A stretch of DNA of 23,639 nucleotides from contig JAYOYH010000059.1 in assembly GCA_038153405.1 (NCBI GenBank), positions 1 through 23,639 on the forward strand. Direction: 5' to 3'. The translations under genes were made by a program, and so were the position numbers. Below the pieces are notes generated by a model that saw nothing but the letters and a program-made list of their open reading frames with translations, was not told where the DNA came from and did not search any database. Of the stretch, positions 2,601 to 14,269 are shown one piece after another. Numbering within the stretch: position 1 is the first letter of the stretch; each line of letters begins with the position of its first letter. Source of the stretch: Gemmatimonadota bacterium. GTDB taxonomy: Bacteria > Latescibacterota > UBA2968 > UBA8231.

Positions 2601-2790
2601 GACACGGCCGGTTGGCTGCGGGTGAGTATCCCGTTGTAAAGAGGCGAAAAGCAAACCGCGTCGCTCGATCCTACCTCCCCAAAGCTCTTTTTGTATCCAT
2701 CGCCTTCGTTGCGGCTGAACCGCGTTGGCAATTAGGCACAGGTATTTGGTAACTGCGGCTGAATGTGTATTATTACGAGAGGCGCGTTGG

Positions 2791-2895
2791 GGCGCCTTCA
2801 GTCCGCGAGAAGGGCCAAGCCCACCCTCCCACAGAAGGCCTCTCACCTTCTTTCCGCCTGTAGAGCGCGGGCCCAGGCGATTTCGAGAGAGGGTG
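2791..2895 (+). ncRNA. Putative structured cis-regulatory leader RNA (multi-branch, with anti-SD strand)
   Basis: Nested pairings found by eye: CGCCU 2793-97/AGGCG 2875-79; GUCCGCG 2801-07/CGCGGGC 2866-72; GGGC 2812-15/GCCC 2819-22; GAAGG 2834-38/CCUUC 2846-50. CACCCUC 2822-28 is complementary to the SD region GAGGGUG 2889-95. Candidate promoter TTGGTA(2746)-16-TATTAT(2768) lies upstream. Confidence 0.45.
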
Positions 2896-2900
2896 TAGCT

Positions 2901-3191
2901 ATGTCCTATCCCATTTCTATCTCTGCTTTCAGTGATATCGCCGACCTCGGTGAAGATCAGATCCGGGAGATCATTGCGCGCGTTGGTCGCGATGATTTCA
3001 CCATCGCTCTGAAGGATGCTTCCGAGCCACTCAAGGAGCGCGTGCGCCGCAGCGTGACCGAGGCGGAGTGGCAGGCCATAGCTTCCTACATGGAATGGCT
3101 CGGCCCCATGCGGCTCAGCGATGTCATACTCGTACAGCTGCAGATTGTGCGCACGTTTCGCGGCGAAACGGGCGATGAACAATTCGTATAG
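2901..3191 (+). CDS. Stand-alone FliG C-terminal-domain protein (96 aa)
   Basis: FSDIADLGEDQIREIIARVGRDDFTIALKDASEPLKERV...YMEWLGPMRLSDVILVQLQIV matches the FliG_C pattern (F.DL..L.D..I..ll..V....L..ALK.AS..L.E......GP.RLSDVE.AQ..IV). Start ATG 2901 follows GAGAGGGTG. Confidence 0.8.
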   Translation: MSYPISISAFSDIADLGEDQIREIIARVGRDDFTIALKDASEPLKERVRRSVTEAEWQAIASYMEWLGPMRLSDVILVQLQIVRTFRGETGDEQFV

Positions 3192-3201
3192 GGAGGGTGA
3201 T

Positions 3202-3993
3202 ATGACAACGTCACGGGAATTGCCCGGCCGCCCGAGCCTAGAGAACCTGAGGAAACAAGCCAAAACGCTGCGCCGACAGATCAACGCCGGCGCCGACCAA
3301 GCTACTGATAGGGCACGGCAGCACCTGCCGCGCTTGGGCAGCGTCGACGCGGCGGATGTGGCTGCCGCTGGCGTAACGCTGCAAGAGGTCCAGTATATCC
3401 TTGCCGTCGAATATGGCTACGGCAAGTGGCAGGACCTGCTGGCCAGCCTCGACGAACAGCGACCCAAGAATTGGCCGCGCGCGATTCCCATCCGACCGGG
3501 CTTGCCCAACCTAGAGCGCGAAGCGGCGATGCTGCATCGCGCCGCTCAGGAAGGACAACCGGAGTGCGCCCTGCGCTTTAGGAAGAGCGTCGACCGCTTG
3601 GCCGATGTGCGCGGCGACGAGATCGGCGGCGCCAGCGTAACCTTAGAGGAGGCGCGGCAGGTCATCGCCACCGATTACGGCTACGCTAGCTGGGCCGATT
3701 TGGATGCGCAGGTAGGCCGACTGCGTCCTGTGCATACCTTCGAGAGCTTGGCCGATCTGGAGGACGATGAGATCCGCGAGATCATCGTTCGCGTGGGGCG
3801 CGATCGCCTCGCCATCGCTTTCAAGTCGGTCAGTGACCGCTTCAAGGATCGCTTCTCGGCCAACATGACCGCTGAGGAGTGGCAGACTCTGGTTGATGCC
3901 ACCGAGAAGCTGGGGCCCATACCGCTGACCGCAGTCGAGGCGGTGCAGTTGGAAATCCTGCGCAAGTTTCGCAGCGACGACCCGCTGGTGTGA
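3202..3993 (+). CDS. Protein with two tandem helical 'LP.RPSLE.LRKQAK...A.EYG...W..L' domains and a C-terminal FliG_C domain (263 aa)
   Basis: Repeat 1: ELPGRPSLENLRKQAKTL...VTLQEVQYILAVEYGYGKWQDL. Repeat 2: AIPIRPGLPNLEREAAML...VTLEEARQVIATDYGYASWADL. C-terminus FESLADLEDDEIREIIVRVGRDRLAIAFK...LGPIPLTAVEAVQLEIL is paralogous to the upstream gene. GGGAGGGTG precedes ATG 3202. Confidence 0.8.
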   Translation: MTTSRELPGRPSLENLRKQAKTLRRQINAGADQATDRARQHLPRLGSVDAADVAAAGVTLQEVQYILAVEYGYGKWQDLLASLDEQRPKNWPRAIPIRPGLPNLEREAAMLHRAAQEGQPECALRFRKSVDRLADVRGDEIGGASVTLEEARQVIATDYGYASWADLDAQVGRLRPVHTFESLADLEDDEIREIIVRVGRDRLAIAFKSVSDRFKDRFSANMTAEEWQTLVDATEKLGPIPLTAVEAVQLEILRKFRSDDPLV

Positions 3994-4170: not shown

Positions 4171-5706
4171 CTACGAGAGCCAGTTGGTGCGATCCATGCT
4201 GCGGTATTGAATGGCTTCGGCCAGATGGTGCGGGCCGATGTGCGGGGTGCCCTCTACGTCGGCGATGGTGCGCGCCACTTTGCGAATGCGATCGTAGGCG
4301 CGCGCCGACAGGCCCAATCGTTCCACGGCCGTGACCAGTAGGGCGTCACCCGCTTTGCAGAGCCCGCAGTGCGCTTCCAATTGGCGCGGCCCCATATGCG
4401 CATTGCAGTAGATTGCTTCGCCGGCAAAGCGCTCCATCTGCCGTTGACGGGCGGCGTTGACGCGGTGGCGCACGTCCTGCGAACGCTCGCCACTTTCGCC
4501 CTGGCGCAGGTCGGCATAGTCTAGGGCGGGCACTTCTACGTGCAGGTCAAAGCGGTCGAGCAGCGGGCCGGACAGGCGCGCGCGATAGCGCCGCATCTGG
4601 GCCGGCGTGCAGTGACAGTGGCGTCGGGCATCGCCGCTATAGCCGCACGGACAGGGGTTCATAGCGGCTACTAACATAAAGCGCGCCGGATAGGACAGGC
4701 TGAACTGGGCGCGGGCAATGGTGACCGAGCGGTCCTCTAGCGGTTGGCGCAGTGCTTCGATGACGTCCTTGCGAAACTCGGGTAGCTCGTCTAAAAAGAG
4801 TACGCCGTGGTGGGCCAGAGAGGCTTCGCCGGGGCGCGGATAGGTGCCTCCGCCTATCAGGCCTGCGGCGGAAATCGTGTGATGAGGCGCGCGGAAAGGG
4901 CGCGCGGCGACGAGCGCTTGCTGGGGCGGCAGCACGCCGGCAACGGAGTGAATCTGCGTGGTATCCAGCGCTTCTTCCAAGGTGAAATCGGGCAGTATGG
5001 TGGGCAGGCGCCGCGCCAGCAGCGTTTTGCCCGAACCCGGCGTGCCGACGAAAAAGAGGTTGTGGTTGCCCGCCGCAGCAATCTCTAGAGCGCGCTTGGC
5101 GTGCGCCTGTCCCTTCACCTCTGAAAGATCTATATCGCCGGCCGTTTGCTTTGCAAAGACCCCTTCTATATCCAATGTGTAGGGCTGCATTCGCGCGCTG
5201 CCTTCGAGGACCTCGACCGCTTCGTGCAGCGTAGCTGCGCCGTATACCAGCGGATTGCCGGCCGTAGCGGCCTCGCGCGCATTGGGCGTTGGCACGACCA
5301 GTCCGTAGACGGCGCTCTGTCGCAGGCCCAACGCCATGGACAGTGCGCCGTGTATGGGCCGCACGGTGCCATCCAGCGAAAGCTCGCCGAGAAAGGCAAA
5401 GTCCGACAGGCGCGCGGGGCGTATCTGCCGCGAGGCGATGAGAATGCCCAGCGCGATGGGCAGGTCGAACGCGCTGCCCTCTTTGCGGCGGTTGGCCGGT
5501 GCGAGGTTGACGGTGACGCGTTTGCGCGGCCACTGAAAGCCGCTGTTGCGAATGGCGGCCAGCACGCGCTCTTTGCTCTCGCGCACGGCGCTGTCGGGCA
5601 GGCCGACGACGGTGAAGGTGGGCAACGAGCGGTCGGTGTCGACTTCGACGTGGACGGGATAGGCGTCGATGCCGTGCGTGGCGGCCGAGAGCACAGTGGA
5701 TGGCAT
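4171..5706 (-). CDS. comM: ComM/YifB Mg-chelatase-like AAA+ ATPase
   Basis: VVGLPDSAVRESKERV, VTVNLAPA..RKEGSAFDLPIA, Walker A GTPGSGKT, PFRAPHHT, Walker B LFLDELPEF, AMNPCPCG, SGPLLDRFD, LSARAYDRI. Start ATG 5706 (MPSTVLSA). Confidence 0.93.
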   Translation of the reverse strand: MPSTVLSAATHGIDAYPVHVEVDTDRSLPTFTVVGLPDSAVRESKERVLAAIRNSGFQWPRKRVTVNLAPANRRKEGSAFDLPIALGILIASRQIRPARLSDFAFLGELSLDGTVRPIHGALSMALGLRQSAVYGLVVPTPNAREAATAGNPLVYGAATLHEAVEVLEGSARMQPYTLDIEGVFAKQTAGDIDLSEVKGQAHAKRALEIAAAGNHNLFFVGTPGSGKTLLARRLPTILPDFTLEEALDTTQIHSVAGVLPPQQALVAARPFRAPHHTISAAGLIGGGTYPRPGEASLAHHGVLFLDELPEFRKDVIEALRQPLEDRSVTIARAQFSLSYPARFMLVAAMNPCPCGYSGDARRHCHCTPAQMRRYRARLSGPLLDRFDLHVEVPALDYADLRQGESGERSQDVRHRVNAARQRQMERFAGEAIYCNAHMGPRQLEAHCGLCKAGDALLVTAVERLGLSARAYDRIRKVARTIADVEGTPHIGPHHLAEAIQYRSMDRTNWLS

Positions 5707-5832
5707 GGCAGCTTCTTTCCGTAAGGTGGCGCGGAAAGAGCAACAAGAACTGTGCCGGGCGGATGGGTTCTCTGAAGGCAACTGCCGAGGTGAATACGAG
5801 CACGTCACCTGCAGGTGACATGGGCGCTACGC
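5707..5832. repeat. 126-bp direct repeat, copy A (comM upstream region)
   Basis: Matches 6650-6775 at 122/126 positions by manual alignment; contains the perfect palindrome GTCACCTGCAGGTGAC (5804-5819). Confidence 0.95.
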
Positions 5833-5863: not shown

Positions 5864-6241
5864 TTACGCTGCGATCACAGAAATCCCGTATTGCCTGATA
5901 GAGGTATCGCGGGTCACCAGCGTTAGGTCCTCTATTTTAGCCTGTACGATCATCATGCGGTCAAATGGGTCCTGATGAACCGGCGGCAGGGCGGCAACGG
6001 CTAGAGCGTGCGGAATGGTTATGGGCAGCGATAGGAAATGCTCTTCGGCCATGACCTCCTCGAGATTGTCCGGGGCATCCAATTTGCCAAGCGCCTTTTT
6101 GATGGCGATTTCCCACGCTGCAGCGGCGCTGACAAATACCAGATTATTGCTTTCGGCAATGGCGTTAAAAGCTTCTTCGGATAGGACGTTGGGATCGTCA
6201 AACCACCAGAGGACTACGTGGGTGTCGAGAAGCACATTCAC
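5864..6241 (-). CDS. vapC: Type II TA toxin, VapC/PIN domain
   Basis: LLDTHVVLWW, VSAAAAWEIAIK..LGKL, H.DPFDRMMIVQA, LVTRD. Start overlaps the antitoxin stop by 4 nt. Confidence 0.92.
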   Translation of the reverse strand: MNVLLDTHVVLWWFDDPNVLSEEAFNAIAESNNLVFVSAAAAWEIAIKKALGKLDAPDNLEEVMAEEHFLSLPITIPHALAVAALPPVHQDPFDRMMIVQAKIEDLTLVTRDTSIRQYGISVIAA

Positions 6242-6477
6242 GGCGTTTCACCCTTGAATGCAGCGGCTAAGCCCTCGGGCAACGGATCGAAGTCAGCGGC
6301 GACGTTGACCTTTCCACGCCACTGACCTCCCTGCCGTCGCGCTTGGCTGGGCGCGTATTGCACGAGTTTGGCAACGGGTTTACCCGCCTTGCAGATGACG
6401 ACCTCTTCGCCCCGCAGGACGCACTCTATGAGCTTTGATAGATGCGTCTTGGCTTGGTGTATATTGGTGGATCGCAT
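6238..6477 (-). CDS. Type II TA antitoxin, Phd/YefM family
   Basis: NIHQAKTHLSKLIE.V..GEEVVI.KAGKPVAKLV, followed by R..G.W.G....DFDPLP. Confidence 0.92.
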   Translation of the reverse strand: MRSTNIHQAKTHLSKLIECVLRGEEVVICKAGKPVAKLVQYAPSQARRQGGQWRGKVNVAADFDPLPEGLAAAFKGETP

Positions 6478-6503: not shown

Positions 6504-6526
6504 TTAGCTAACATTAGCTAAGTATA
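6504..6526 (-). promoter_or_regulatory. TA operator: two tandem TTAGCTAA palindromes abutting a TATACT -10 box
   Basis: TTAGCTAA at 6504-6511 and 6514-6521 (10-bp period); minus-strand TATACT at 6521-6526. Confidence 0.6.
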
Positions 6527-6549
6527 AGGTATATCGTTGGTATGTAAGA

Positions 6550-6649
6550 GGCAACGTCCCGTGTATCGCTTTCGCCGATCGGCCGGCGCGAGGTTGACGG
6601 TGACGCGTTTGCGCGGCCACAGAAAGCCGCTGTTGCGAATGGCGGGCAG
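6550..6649 (-). pseudogene. Decayed remnant of the comM 5' coding region
   Basis: 6581-6649 matches 5494-5562 at 66/69 nt (AIRNSGF.WPRKRVTVNLAPA). The first 48 codons, including the ATG, are deleted. A weak further remnant AIHGTLP corresponds to native PIHGALS. Confidence 0.85.
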
Positions 6650-6775
6650 GGCAGCTTCTTTCCGTAAGGTGGTGCGGAAAGAGCAACGAGAACTGTGCCG
6701 AGCGGATGGGTTCTCTGAAGGCAACTGCCGAGGTGAATACGAGCACGTCACCTGCAGGTTACATGGGCGCTACGC
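6650..6775. repeat. 126-bp direct repeat, copy B (comM upstream region)
   Basis: Matches 5707-5832 with 4 substitutions. Confidence 0.95.
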
Positions 6776-12947: not shown

Positions 12948-12978
12948 GGCGTGGGGCACAGAGCCCCGCGCCTTTTTT
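12948..12978 (+). terminator. Rho-independent terminator
   Basis: GGCGTGGGGC-acaga-GCCCCGCGCC stem followed by TTTTTT. Confidence 0.8.
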
Positions 12979-13093
12979 GTTGCGTGTACTGCGCCGTCCG
13001 ATTCTCTCCAATACGTGTCTACCCGGTAGAACTTGCCCGAGAACTTTCGTATACTATCAATGTCAACTGGAAATTCCCCCAAGGATGGTCCAC

Positions 13094-14269
13094 GTGGCTC
13101 TCAGTATAAACAGCAATCAATCTGCGCTTAATGTGCGCAGAAATCTCAACGCGTCTACGCGCGAGCTGTCAACGAGCTTGGAGCGCCTATCGTCGGGTCT
13201 GCGCATTAACCGCGCCGCCGATGATCCGGCAGGGCTTTCCGTGCGCGAGGGACTGCGCGCCGAATCGTCTGGTCTGCAGGCCAGCGCGCGCAATGCCGAA
13301 CAGGCGACCAATCTCATTCAGACGGCTGAGGCATCACTCAACGAGGTTAACGCCATCCTCGTGCGCATGCGCGAACTGGCCGTGCAATCTGCGTCGGGAA
13401 CGATTAGCGACAGCAACCGCGAGGCCGTGCAAACCGAGTTTACCCAGCTCAGCAATGAAATTGATCGCATAGCTCAGGCGACCACGTTCAACCGTCAGGT
13501 GCTGCTGACAGGTTTTGGCAATACGGTCAGTGCGGCGTCGAGCGCCATTGCGGCCAGCGACACAACGGGTGTGACCAACGTGTCGATTTCCGGCGCGGAG
13601 GCGGGCACATTCACCTTTGTCGACGCCGGCGGTGACGGCGATCTGACGCTGGGCAACGGCACGCTGACGCAGACGATCTCGCTAGGCACCGTGCTCGATG
13701 GCGACGTCGTGGCTACGGGTACTAAGGTCGTGGCTAACTTCGATCGGCTGGGGATTCAGGTTACGCTGGCTGGCGTAGATGCGACGGGCGCGACGGGCGC
13801 TTTTACCGACGGCGGCCTAGACGGCTACGAACTCGTCGTGAAAGAGGGCACGGGGGCGAGTTTTCAAATCGGCCCCATCGACTCCAACTTTAATCGGGTG
13901 GAACTGTCGATACCGGACCTGACGGCGACGGGCACCGAGCTCAATCTGAGCTCGACTAGCGTGACGACGCAGACGACGGCGCAGTCGGCCATCACTGAGG
14001 TAGACAGCGCCATCACCCGCGTGTCGCAGGAGCGCGGCAATCTCGGTGCTGTGCAAAATCGACTCAGCTTCAATCTATCGGCGACGGAAAATCGCCTCGA
14101 ACAGGTGCAGGCCGCCGAATCGACGATTAGCGATACGGACATTGCCGAAGAAGTGACCAAACTCACGCGCGCGCAGGTGCTATCGCAGGGGGCGTCCGCT
14201 TTGCTGGCACAGGCCCAGGGCATACAGGCCACCAGCGTGCTGACGCTGCTCGGCTTTCAGCAGCGGTAG
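13094..14269 (+). CDS. fliC: Flagellin
   Basis: GTG start after AAGGATGG. N-terminal ALSINSN...SLERLSSGLRINRAADDPAGL...RMRELAVQSASGT; C-terminal RGNLGAVQNRL...AESTISDTDIAEEVTKLTRAQVL.Q. Confidence 0.92.
   Translation: MALSINSNQSALNVRRNLNASTRELSTSLERLSSGLRINRAADDPAGLSVREGLRAESSGLQASARNAEQATNLIQTAEASLNEVNAILVRMRELAVQSASGTISDSNREAVQTEFTQLSNEIDRIAQATTFNRQVLLTGFGNTVSAASSAIAASDTTGVTNVSISGAEAGTFTFVDAGGDGDLTLGNGTLTQTISLGTVLDGDVVATGTKVVANFDRLGIQVTLAGVDATGATGAFTDGGLDGYELVVKEGTGASFQIGPIDSNFNRVELSIPDLTATGTELNLSSTSVTTQTTAQSAITEVDSAITRVSQERGNLGAVQNRLSFNLSATENRLEQVQAAESTISDTDIAEEVTKLTRAQVLSQGASALLAQAQGIQATSVLTLLGFQQR

Follow-up and report, generated by a model that had tools for sequence, protein, structure and literature searches.

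The window, a contig of 23,639 nucleotides from a Gemmatimonadota genome (G000; Latescibacterota in GTDB), carries a real, uncatalogued RNA-plus-domain cassette. It consists of a ~120-nt leader RNA with a double pseudoknot (2781–2900, + strand), which pairs with the Shine–Dalgarno sequence (SD) of the gene that follows, and of a small domain with the signature LPxxPxLExLxKQAK, which is encoded by the second gene of the same operon. The first-pass annotation of this DNA had proposed an undescribed cis-acting RNA with a pseudoknot and SD pairing, and covariation in 77 homologs, together with the lack of a match in Rfam, bears this out. The RNA family combines an intricate fold with a spread over many poorly studied phyla, is missing from Rfam, is often multicopy and is paired with an uncharacterised domain.

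The operon and its surroundings

All parts of the operon lie on the + strand. A sigma70-type promoter (2746–2773, with the -35 box at 2746–2751 and the -10 box at 2768–2773) has its predicted start immediately 5' of P1, the first helix of the leader. The spacing recurs among the 77 leaders of the fold alignment described below, in which 32 of 54 -35-like matches lie at -39 to -37 and 59 TAnnnT matches at -16 to -13 from P1. Because the distance between promoter and P1 is fixed, the leader is predicted to form the 5' end of the message. Gene 1 (2901–3191, 96 aa) is a free-standing FliG_C domain (Pfam E = 1.4e-13) and does not contain the LPxxPxLExLxKQAK domain. Gene 2 (3202–3993, 263 aa), whose ribosome-binding site (RBS2) is at 3191–3199, codes for two ~80-aa copies of this domain (residues ~5–85 and ~93–175) followed by FliG_C (E = 2.2e-14); the AlphaFold model of the protein is all helical, with a pLDDT of 81. 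Evidence for expression of the locus is weak: four short RNA-run contigs from two studies all fall on coding parts, one of them spanning the border of genes 1 and 2 (3017–3251), and they show neither strand nor start and leave the leader outside their coverage.

The product of gene 1 is 40–44% identical to the C-termini encoded by three full-length FliG genes elsewhere in this genome, and it has the D-x-x-F-V type of tail found in the full-length FliG, but it lacks the R and EE residues present in the matching helix. In FliG, the helix that bears these residues contacts the stator, so the FliG_C copies encoded here are unlikely to be motor parts. The genome contains unusually many genes with a FliG_M domain (four, on contigs C69, C5, C29 and C43, each of ~340–370 aa) and several flagellin-like genes. 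A flagellin-like ORF of the window (12977–14269, + strand), located apart from other flagellar genes, is 45–61% identical to copies on contigs C1 and C8.

The DNA 5' of gene 2 was considered as a remnant of a duplicated leader end. This idea was dropped because the stretch codes for an ordinary FliG C-terminal tail; the shared SD of gene 2 may be the sole part of it that descends from the leader. A downstream paralog that retains just the last ~25 nt of the leader is found at another locus (L267, compared with L266).

Elsewhere in the window, a divergent pair of genes (589–1200, - strand, and 2019–2600, + strand) codes for probable exported proteins, of which the first is YceI-like and the second, which has no Pfam match, looks similar by eye. 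A PIN-type toxin–antitoxin-like pair, also judged by eye (5864–6477 and 6504–6751, both - strand), is flanked by a gene for a ComM-like ATPase (4171–5808) and by a short broken duplicate of the 5' end of that gene.

Fold of the leader RNA

In a search of the window with covariance model R1, the leader (2781–2900) is the sole strong match, at 96.4 bits, a score to be read with the leader itself being among the model-building sequences. Its own folding energy is not better than that of shuffled sequences (z = -0.44), and its status was therefore judged from homologs. The fold was derived from a sequence-only alignment of 77 leaders collected upstream of domain genes (mean identity 58%, effective number 66), from which five redundant rows, one row with an N and five partial rows were left out and to which six rows were re-added or added via hand anchors. 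An all-against-all mutual-information scan of this alignment, which was given no structure, ranked the pairs 2815/2819, 2784/2793, 2788/2827, 2814/2820, 2859/2875, 2789/2826 and 2785/2792 highest. In the seven-helix structure that accommodates them, 92.3% of cells are paired, against 84.0% in shuffled alignments (none of 500 reached this value) and 39–52% with slid partners, and double changes are found in 32 of 37 pairs. These controls overstate significance, because the structure was drawn from the same 77 sequences and the shuffles ignore kinship; the structure-free ranking of covarying pairs is the cleaner support for the predicted fold. Comparative evidence of this kind makes a conserved family fold of seven helices, two of them pseudoknots, well supported.

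The 5' domain of the leader starts with the P1 hairpin (2781–2796, formed by 2781–85/2792–96), which is 92% paired, shows double changes in three of four pairs and contains the strongly covarying pair 2784/2793 (z = 18). The P1 loop serves as the 5' arm of the first pseudoknot, PK1 (2789–2826, formed by 2789–91 with 2824–26), which is 91.5% paired with double changes in all four pairs (2788/2827, z = 15; 2789/2826, z = 10) and measures only 3 bp in this copy and 3–4 bp in the family. P2 (2797–2809) is a helix of 2–3 bp, whose inner pairs are formed in 71 of 77 and 73 of 74 leaders, with five and two double changes, respectively, and whose outer pair is weak. Its loop presents the strand 2801–2806, which kisses 2867–72 in the loop of P5 and forms the second pseudoknot, PK2 (2801–2872). 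PK2 is 99.1% paired and has double changes in four of six pairs; compensated variants occur among homologs, with a double compensation in genome G026. The P3 hairpin (2812–2822) is 96% paired and has the top covariation score (2815/2819, z = 21). The bases A2810, A2811 and A2823 are unpaired and highly conserved (95, 99 and 88%, respectively).

A linker of 4–54 nt connects this part to the 3' domain, in which P4 (2844–2895), a helix of 11 bp between the anti-SD strand 2844–2854 and 2885–2895, covers the SD of gene 1. P4 is 88% paired with double changes in nine of 11 pairs. It encloses the P5 hairpin (2856–2878, formed by 2856–60/2874–78), which is 99% paired with double changes in all five pairs (2859/2875, z = 15) and holds the 3' kissing strand of PK2 in its loop. 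In ensemble folding, the SD pairs with 2844–54 with a probability of 0.97 here and of more than 0.5 in 54 of 77 leaders. The median cost of opening the SD, computed for nested folds only, is 13.8 kcal/mol in the 3' domain and 8.9 kcal/mol in the whole leader. No terminator was found at the leader.

The nested arrangement proposed in the first-pass annotation, in which stems 2793–97/2875–79 and 2801–07/2866–72 close a junction with hairpins at 2812–22 and 2834–50, can form in this sequence, with one G-U pair in the inner stem. In the family, the hairpin 2812–22 and the pairing 2801–06/2867–72 are retained, the latter as a loop–loop pseudoknot and not as a nested stem. The outer stem is 69% paired and its variable pairs are mostly broken. 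The hairpin 2834–2850 is an optional linker element, present in a subset of leaders only: its alignment columns are 29.5% paired in the 77 homologs, its pair probability in this copy is 0.05, and it would compete for the anti-SD strand. A GAAGG-type partner in the linker was found in 24 of 118 leaders among the listed matches of a DNA-pattern search and in four of the 77 leaders collected from proteins.

As to the novelty of the RNA, no known family was matched: Rfam 15 at the gathering threshold gave zero matches in the window, and raising E to 10 returned only chance snoRNA matches outside the leader. The leaders at 15 homologous loci had no match either.

The partner domain and the family

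A statement in the first-pass annotation, that similar leaders precede genes for this domain in other phyla, is confirmed by both of the collections assembled here, one starting from DNA patterns and the other from proteins. The DNA-pattern scan of GTDB genomes gave at least 120 matches. Those listed come from organisms that we take to belong to Acidobacteriota, Gemmatimonadota, Planctomycetota, Actinomycetota, Armatimonadota, Chloroflexota, Poribacteria, Latescibacterota and Proteobacteria, and the leader family occurs in at least eight phyla. The LPxxPxLExLxKQAK domain is encoded downstream of 113 of the 120 matches listed; the other seven comprise two apparent chance matches, two at contig edges, one whose domain is truncated, and two true leaders with no match to the domain behind them, so that two of the 118 apparent true matches listed are clearly without the domain. 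In the protein-first collection, a leader is found at 87 of 107 distinct domain loci (five of the 87 are partial) and was not seen nearby at the other 20. Model R1 found 43 matches in five genomes, up to 16 per genome (in G026), 35 of which are already known domain genes, many of them used to build R1. Among the eight new matches, six have a domain match, one shows, by eye, a domain start that is followed by a frame shift, and the last has a broken leader and lacks the domain. Altogether, a candidate regulator is encoded in the operon behind the leader at 41–42 of the 43 matches. The similarity of leaders correlates only weakly with that of their domains (rho 0.17), and much of their co-occurrence could be due to nothing more than physical linkage.

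This genome has a second leader copy on contig C45, directly 5' of a paralogous domain gene (L027:1504–2469). By eye, the L027 protein is composed of the domain, FliG_C and a C-terminus that resembles the cytoplasmic part of MotA; Pfam names only FliG_C in it, and comparable fusions are present in L346. In two orthologous-looking loci, L016 (G021) and L019 (G015), the 3' SD hairpin and the kissing strand are kept and the 5' domain is degenerate; they score 34.6 and 11 bits and are possible natural variants with loss of regulation. A pattern scan of a viral collection returned 75 stretches with only one true leader. This leader (L085:1178–1310, 92.5 bits) is complete and precedes a domain gene on a 9.5-kb contig, which may be host DNA. 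A blastn search of plasmids gave four short chance matches and no plasmid match to the leader.

The cargo to which the domain is joined varies widely, in keeping with the earlier suggestion of a portable module with variable cargo. Among 150 representatives, FliG_C is found in 43, Clp_N in 12, ankyrin repeats in 10–11 and a BFN nuclease in three; ankyrin repeats are also present in 29 of the 35 proteins scanned from the DNA-pattern collection (70 were extracted). Further cargo includes TPR, sigma54 AAA, FliM, T2SS ATPase, APH, the ClpX zinc finger and a Lon domain. No ribosomal-protein genes were found downstream among the cargo examined (for representatives, the first 25 of 26 families). In genome G042, two paralogs share a near-identical stretch that starts at the -35 box and runs through the whole domain, beyond which one continues into TPR and the other into different cargo; this identifies the copied unit as promoter, leader and domain. 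As judged from sequence, the joint copying of these three elements onto functionally unrelated cargo is shown. In a planctomycete relative (L239:7–1743, - strand), the leader and the domain are fused to T2SSF and T2SSE, a secretion or pilus ATPase.

Helix 1 of the domain is basic, with K or R at positions 17, 18, 21 and 25 in 93, 79, 95 and 86% of 84 rows, respectively. The net charge of the domain is modest (median +3; +1 and -1 in the two copies of gene 2). Later tandem copies mostly lose the basic residues (25% against 99%, a comparison that includes general drift in later copies and a selection bias toward first copies), and copy 2 of gene 2 loses those at positions 17 and 21. Structure comparison gave no Foldseek relative with E<1, a best Z of 4.7 and no clear match to an RNA-binding protein; a sequence search of the PDB gave no credible match for the domain, and the Atlas returned unnamed clusters only. 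These failed searches do not establish a new fold.

A weak, remote similarity links the domain of gene 2 to Glyoxalase_8 (PF20066), whose genes carry a leader of the same topology. Gene 2 matches this family with E = 2.7e-4 and 21.4 bits, under its curated cut-off of 23.7; the helical N-terminal part of Glyoxalase_8 aligns with the domain over 24 columns with an hhalign probability of 52%, and one of the 150 domain representatives matches the family at E<=1e-5. At canonical alphaproteobacterial Glyoxalase_8 genes, a sister leader with the same order of elements and a divergent sequence, which model R1 does not detect, was found at 16 of 19 loci. Its 6-bp kiss with compensated variants was recovered in 15 cases by a strict scan and in one more, with a G-U pair, by eye. 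The P1 loop of the sister leaders forms a mean of 4.6 bp with its partner, compared to 3.2 bp with mismatched partners. The sister leaders upstream of PF20066 genes (L306–L312 and L350–L360) also bear a conserved GGUGAA element. A literature search found no paper describing the Glyoxalase_8 family.

Proposed control and relation to known systems

The reading to which we give an even chance is that the domain keeps translation off by binding to the leader, which would make the cassette a portable unit of autoregulation. The leader would be the operator of the small basic domain of gene 2, through which the protein would repress translation of the operon that encodes it. Basic helix 1 would bind the folded RNA, in which the 5' domain is kissed to the P5 loop, and would stabilise P5 and P4; without bound protein, the RNA would refold enough to free the SD. 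The cargo, here FliG_C, would set the amount of free repressor via its own partners. Both the binding and the direction of control are inferred, and so is the open conformation.

The arrangement in which the leader precedes a domain-less gene 1 and the domain resides in gene 2 is kept in G000, G020, G011 and G026, and is also seen in G001, whose contig begins within gene 1. The leader is intact in four genomes of this operon type, including G026 with its doubly compensated kiss helix, although the domain is encoded in gene 2 only. This speaks against control by a domain still being synthesised on the ribosome that translates behind the leader; it agrees with a completed protein, or an independent ligand, as the acting agent. 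In operons with ribosomal-protein leaders, a gene other than the first may encode the regulator. At L349 (G011:C111), gene 1 stops after 64 aa, and the leader and gene 2 are intact. The locus is a useful test case because the domain-less gene separates the leader from the domain.

The SD is predicted to be buried without any protein, so a repressor may add little and an activator could be the trigger. Two registers of an anti-anti-SD helix (2805–2814 with the anti-SD strand) were tried in the 77 leaders and gave no ON fold with covariation; the helix is pairable and is kept as a candidate. A buried SD with no covarying open conformation keeps two other explanations alive. One of them is a riboswitch, in which a small molecule or ion would stabilise the kissing of the 5' domain with the SD hairpin and the protein domain would simply ride along. 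The compact core of several helices, its highly conserved unpaired bases, the length-variable linker leading to a platform that holds the SD, and the likeness of the overall plan to the pfl motif (PMC7337938) speak for such an RNA. The downstream genes, however, are common to no pathway and share the domain instead, apparent true matches without it are as rare as given above, and no Rfam riboswitch model scores on the leader; we regard a riboswitch as unlikely, albeit a serious contender. The other explanation, which we find distinctly improbable, is a default-off leader whose P4 would be opened by the domain or by another factor, such as a helicase, ribosomal protein S1 or a trans RNA. P4 and P5 alone are indeed stable (median -21.7 kcal/mol, with an SD unpaired probability of <=0.06 per base in this copy), the purine strand 2805–2814 is able to pair with the anti-SD (88% of cells), and in 59 of 77 cases the full leader makes opening cheaper by >2 kcal/mol. 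Yet the covariation of the alternative helix is not beyond that of shuffles (278 of 500 as high), and this helix dominates the SD-open ensemble in only six of 77 leaders.

Two further explanations are very improbable on the evidence of the family. The first-pass annotation had taken strand 2822–2830 for an anti-SD switch that pairs with the ribosome-binding site of gene 1 and, at long range, with RBS2. The strand is the exact reverse complement of 3191–3199 and matches 2887–2895 at 8/9, as had been stated. Such an exact 9-nt match to RBS2 is rare (24 copies of the 9-mer in the genome and ~0.001 expected in 370 nt, for a 9-mer chosen post hoc), and its duplex is strong (-19.2 kcal/mol here and -16.7 in G020, which keeps 8/9). 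The duplex with SD1 is unusually strong in this copy (-13.1 vs a family median of -6.3), and, with a PK1 of only 3 bp here, a recent lineage-specific use of the junction strand is conceivable. In the family, however, this strand, made up of the P3 end, a conserved A and PK1's 3' arm, serves mainly as that arm, and the conserved anti-SD is 2844–2854, whose duplex beats that of the junction in 74 of 77 leaders. Junction-to-SD1 pairing is no more frequent than in shuffles (62.1% against 63.3%, with 476 of 500 shuffles equal or better), and its ensemble probability is 0.03 here and exceeds 0.5 in one of 77 leaders. The RBS2 match is lost in two of four orthologous two-gene operons (-4.3 and -5.6 kcal/mol in G011 and G026), and RBS2 lies 370 nt away, beyond a translated gene. 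Because the strand is similar to the 16S tail of this genome, it would be expected to pair with strong SDs in general. Just as much of a long shot is a self-cleaving or mobility element, an HDV-like ribozyme or a recombination signal that would spread the cassette. PK1, PK2 and P3 have their strands in an order reminiscent of the HDV-like nested double pseudoknot, and the many paralogs (as in G026) and the cassette-like copying would suit mobility. Against it stand a PK1 of 3–4 bp where, according to PMC8495972, an HDV P1 must have >=6 bp, the lack of a conserved C before the 3' PK2 strand (columns <=40% conserved), a variable P3 loop and no P1.1. The G-U pairs and the SD pairing, like the constant distance from the promoter, favour an mRNA leader, and the viral and plasmid searches yielded next to nothing.

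Autoregulation through the domain might also serve a more specific purpose, which we consider rather unlikely and which is suggested by analogy with ClpC2. An ancient portable cassette of promoter, RNA operator and a new RNA-binding domain may have been fused to pieces captured from the bacteria's own machines (FliG_C and FliM of the flagellar rotor, Clp and Lon domains, the pilus/T2SS ATPase, sigma54 AAA). Ankyrin or TPR would serve instead as general-purpose binders. Such pieces would act as decoys, so that binding of a partner or an intruder would lift repression and more decoy would be made. Gene 2 would then be the sensor-repressor and gene 1 a FliG_C sponge.

If the domain binds the leader, the two would form a new RNA–protein pair by which translation is self-controlled in a setting other than ribosome biogenesis; its subfamilies, at least two of which have diverged, could provide orthogonal parts for synthetic biology. 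If a small molecule is bound instead, the leader would define a new class of riboswitch. A 120-nt RNA and an 85-aa protein suffice to test both possibilities.

Searches of the open literature gave no published description of the leader; the motif may be among those in subscription papers or in the supplementary lists of PMC5737381 (224 motifs) or PMC11109978 (50 genomes). The word 'ankyrin' had zero matches in the main text of general motif-discovery papers, and one small supplement of PMC8632094 contained no match.

One known RNA that is close in plan is the ZTP (pfl) riboswitch, in which ZMP stabilises a long-range pseudoknot (PMC7337938); the J1/2 strand of that RNA pairs with the loop of a distal P3 across a variable linker. 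Both RNAs have a 5' domain, a distant 3' hairpin, a variable linker and a long-range pseudoknot into the 3' loop, the PK2 kiss being the analogous element here. Unlike in pfl, the 5' strand of this kiss lies inside a hairpin loop and differs in sequence, and the leader has a second pseudoknot, pairs with the SD and has no terminator, no Rfam match and no pfl consensus; its genes are outside purine and folate metabolism. HDV-like ribozymes (PMC8495972) share two pseudoknots and a similar strand order, but the leader's equivalent of P1 is too short, P1.1 and a conserved position of the catalytic C are absent, and the 3' PK2 strand lies within a hairpin loop.

Mycobacterial ClpC2 is described in PMC10030653 as a partial copy of a machine that represses itself and is derepressed by the machine's ligand; its C-terminal region binds a DNA operator and controls transcription. 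The cargo of the cassette likewise includes Clp_N, FliG_C, FliM, ClpX zinc finger and Lon domains. The likeness is one of analogy only: here the putative operator is an RNA, and its binding would fall to a separate domain.

Twelve autogenous mRNA leaders of ribosomal proteins are counted for E. coli in PMC3616713, some of them pseudoknotted, e.g. the L20 and S2 sites. As in these leaders, a structured 5' leader would be bound by a protein encoded in its own operon; a conserved 5' UTR structure at the translation start and a candidate regulator in the operon are both found here. Unlike them, the genes are non-ribosomal, the leader has up to 16 copies per genome, and leader and domain travel together as a cassette onto unrelated cargo.
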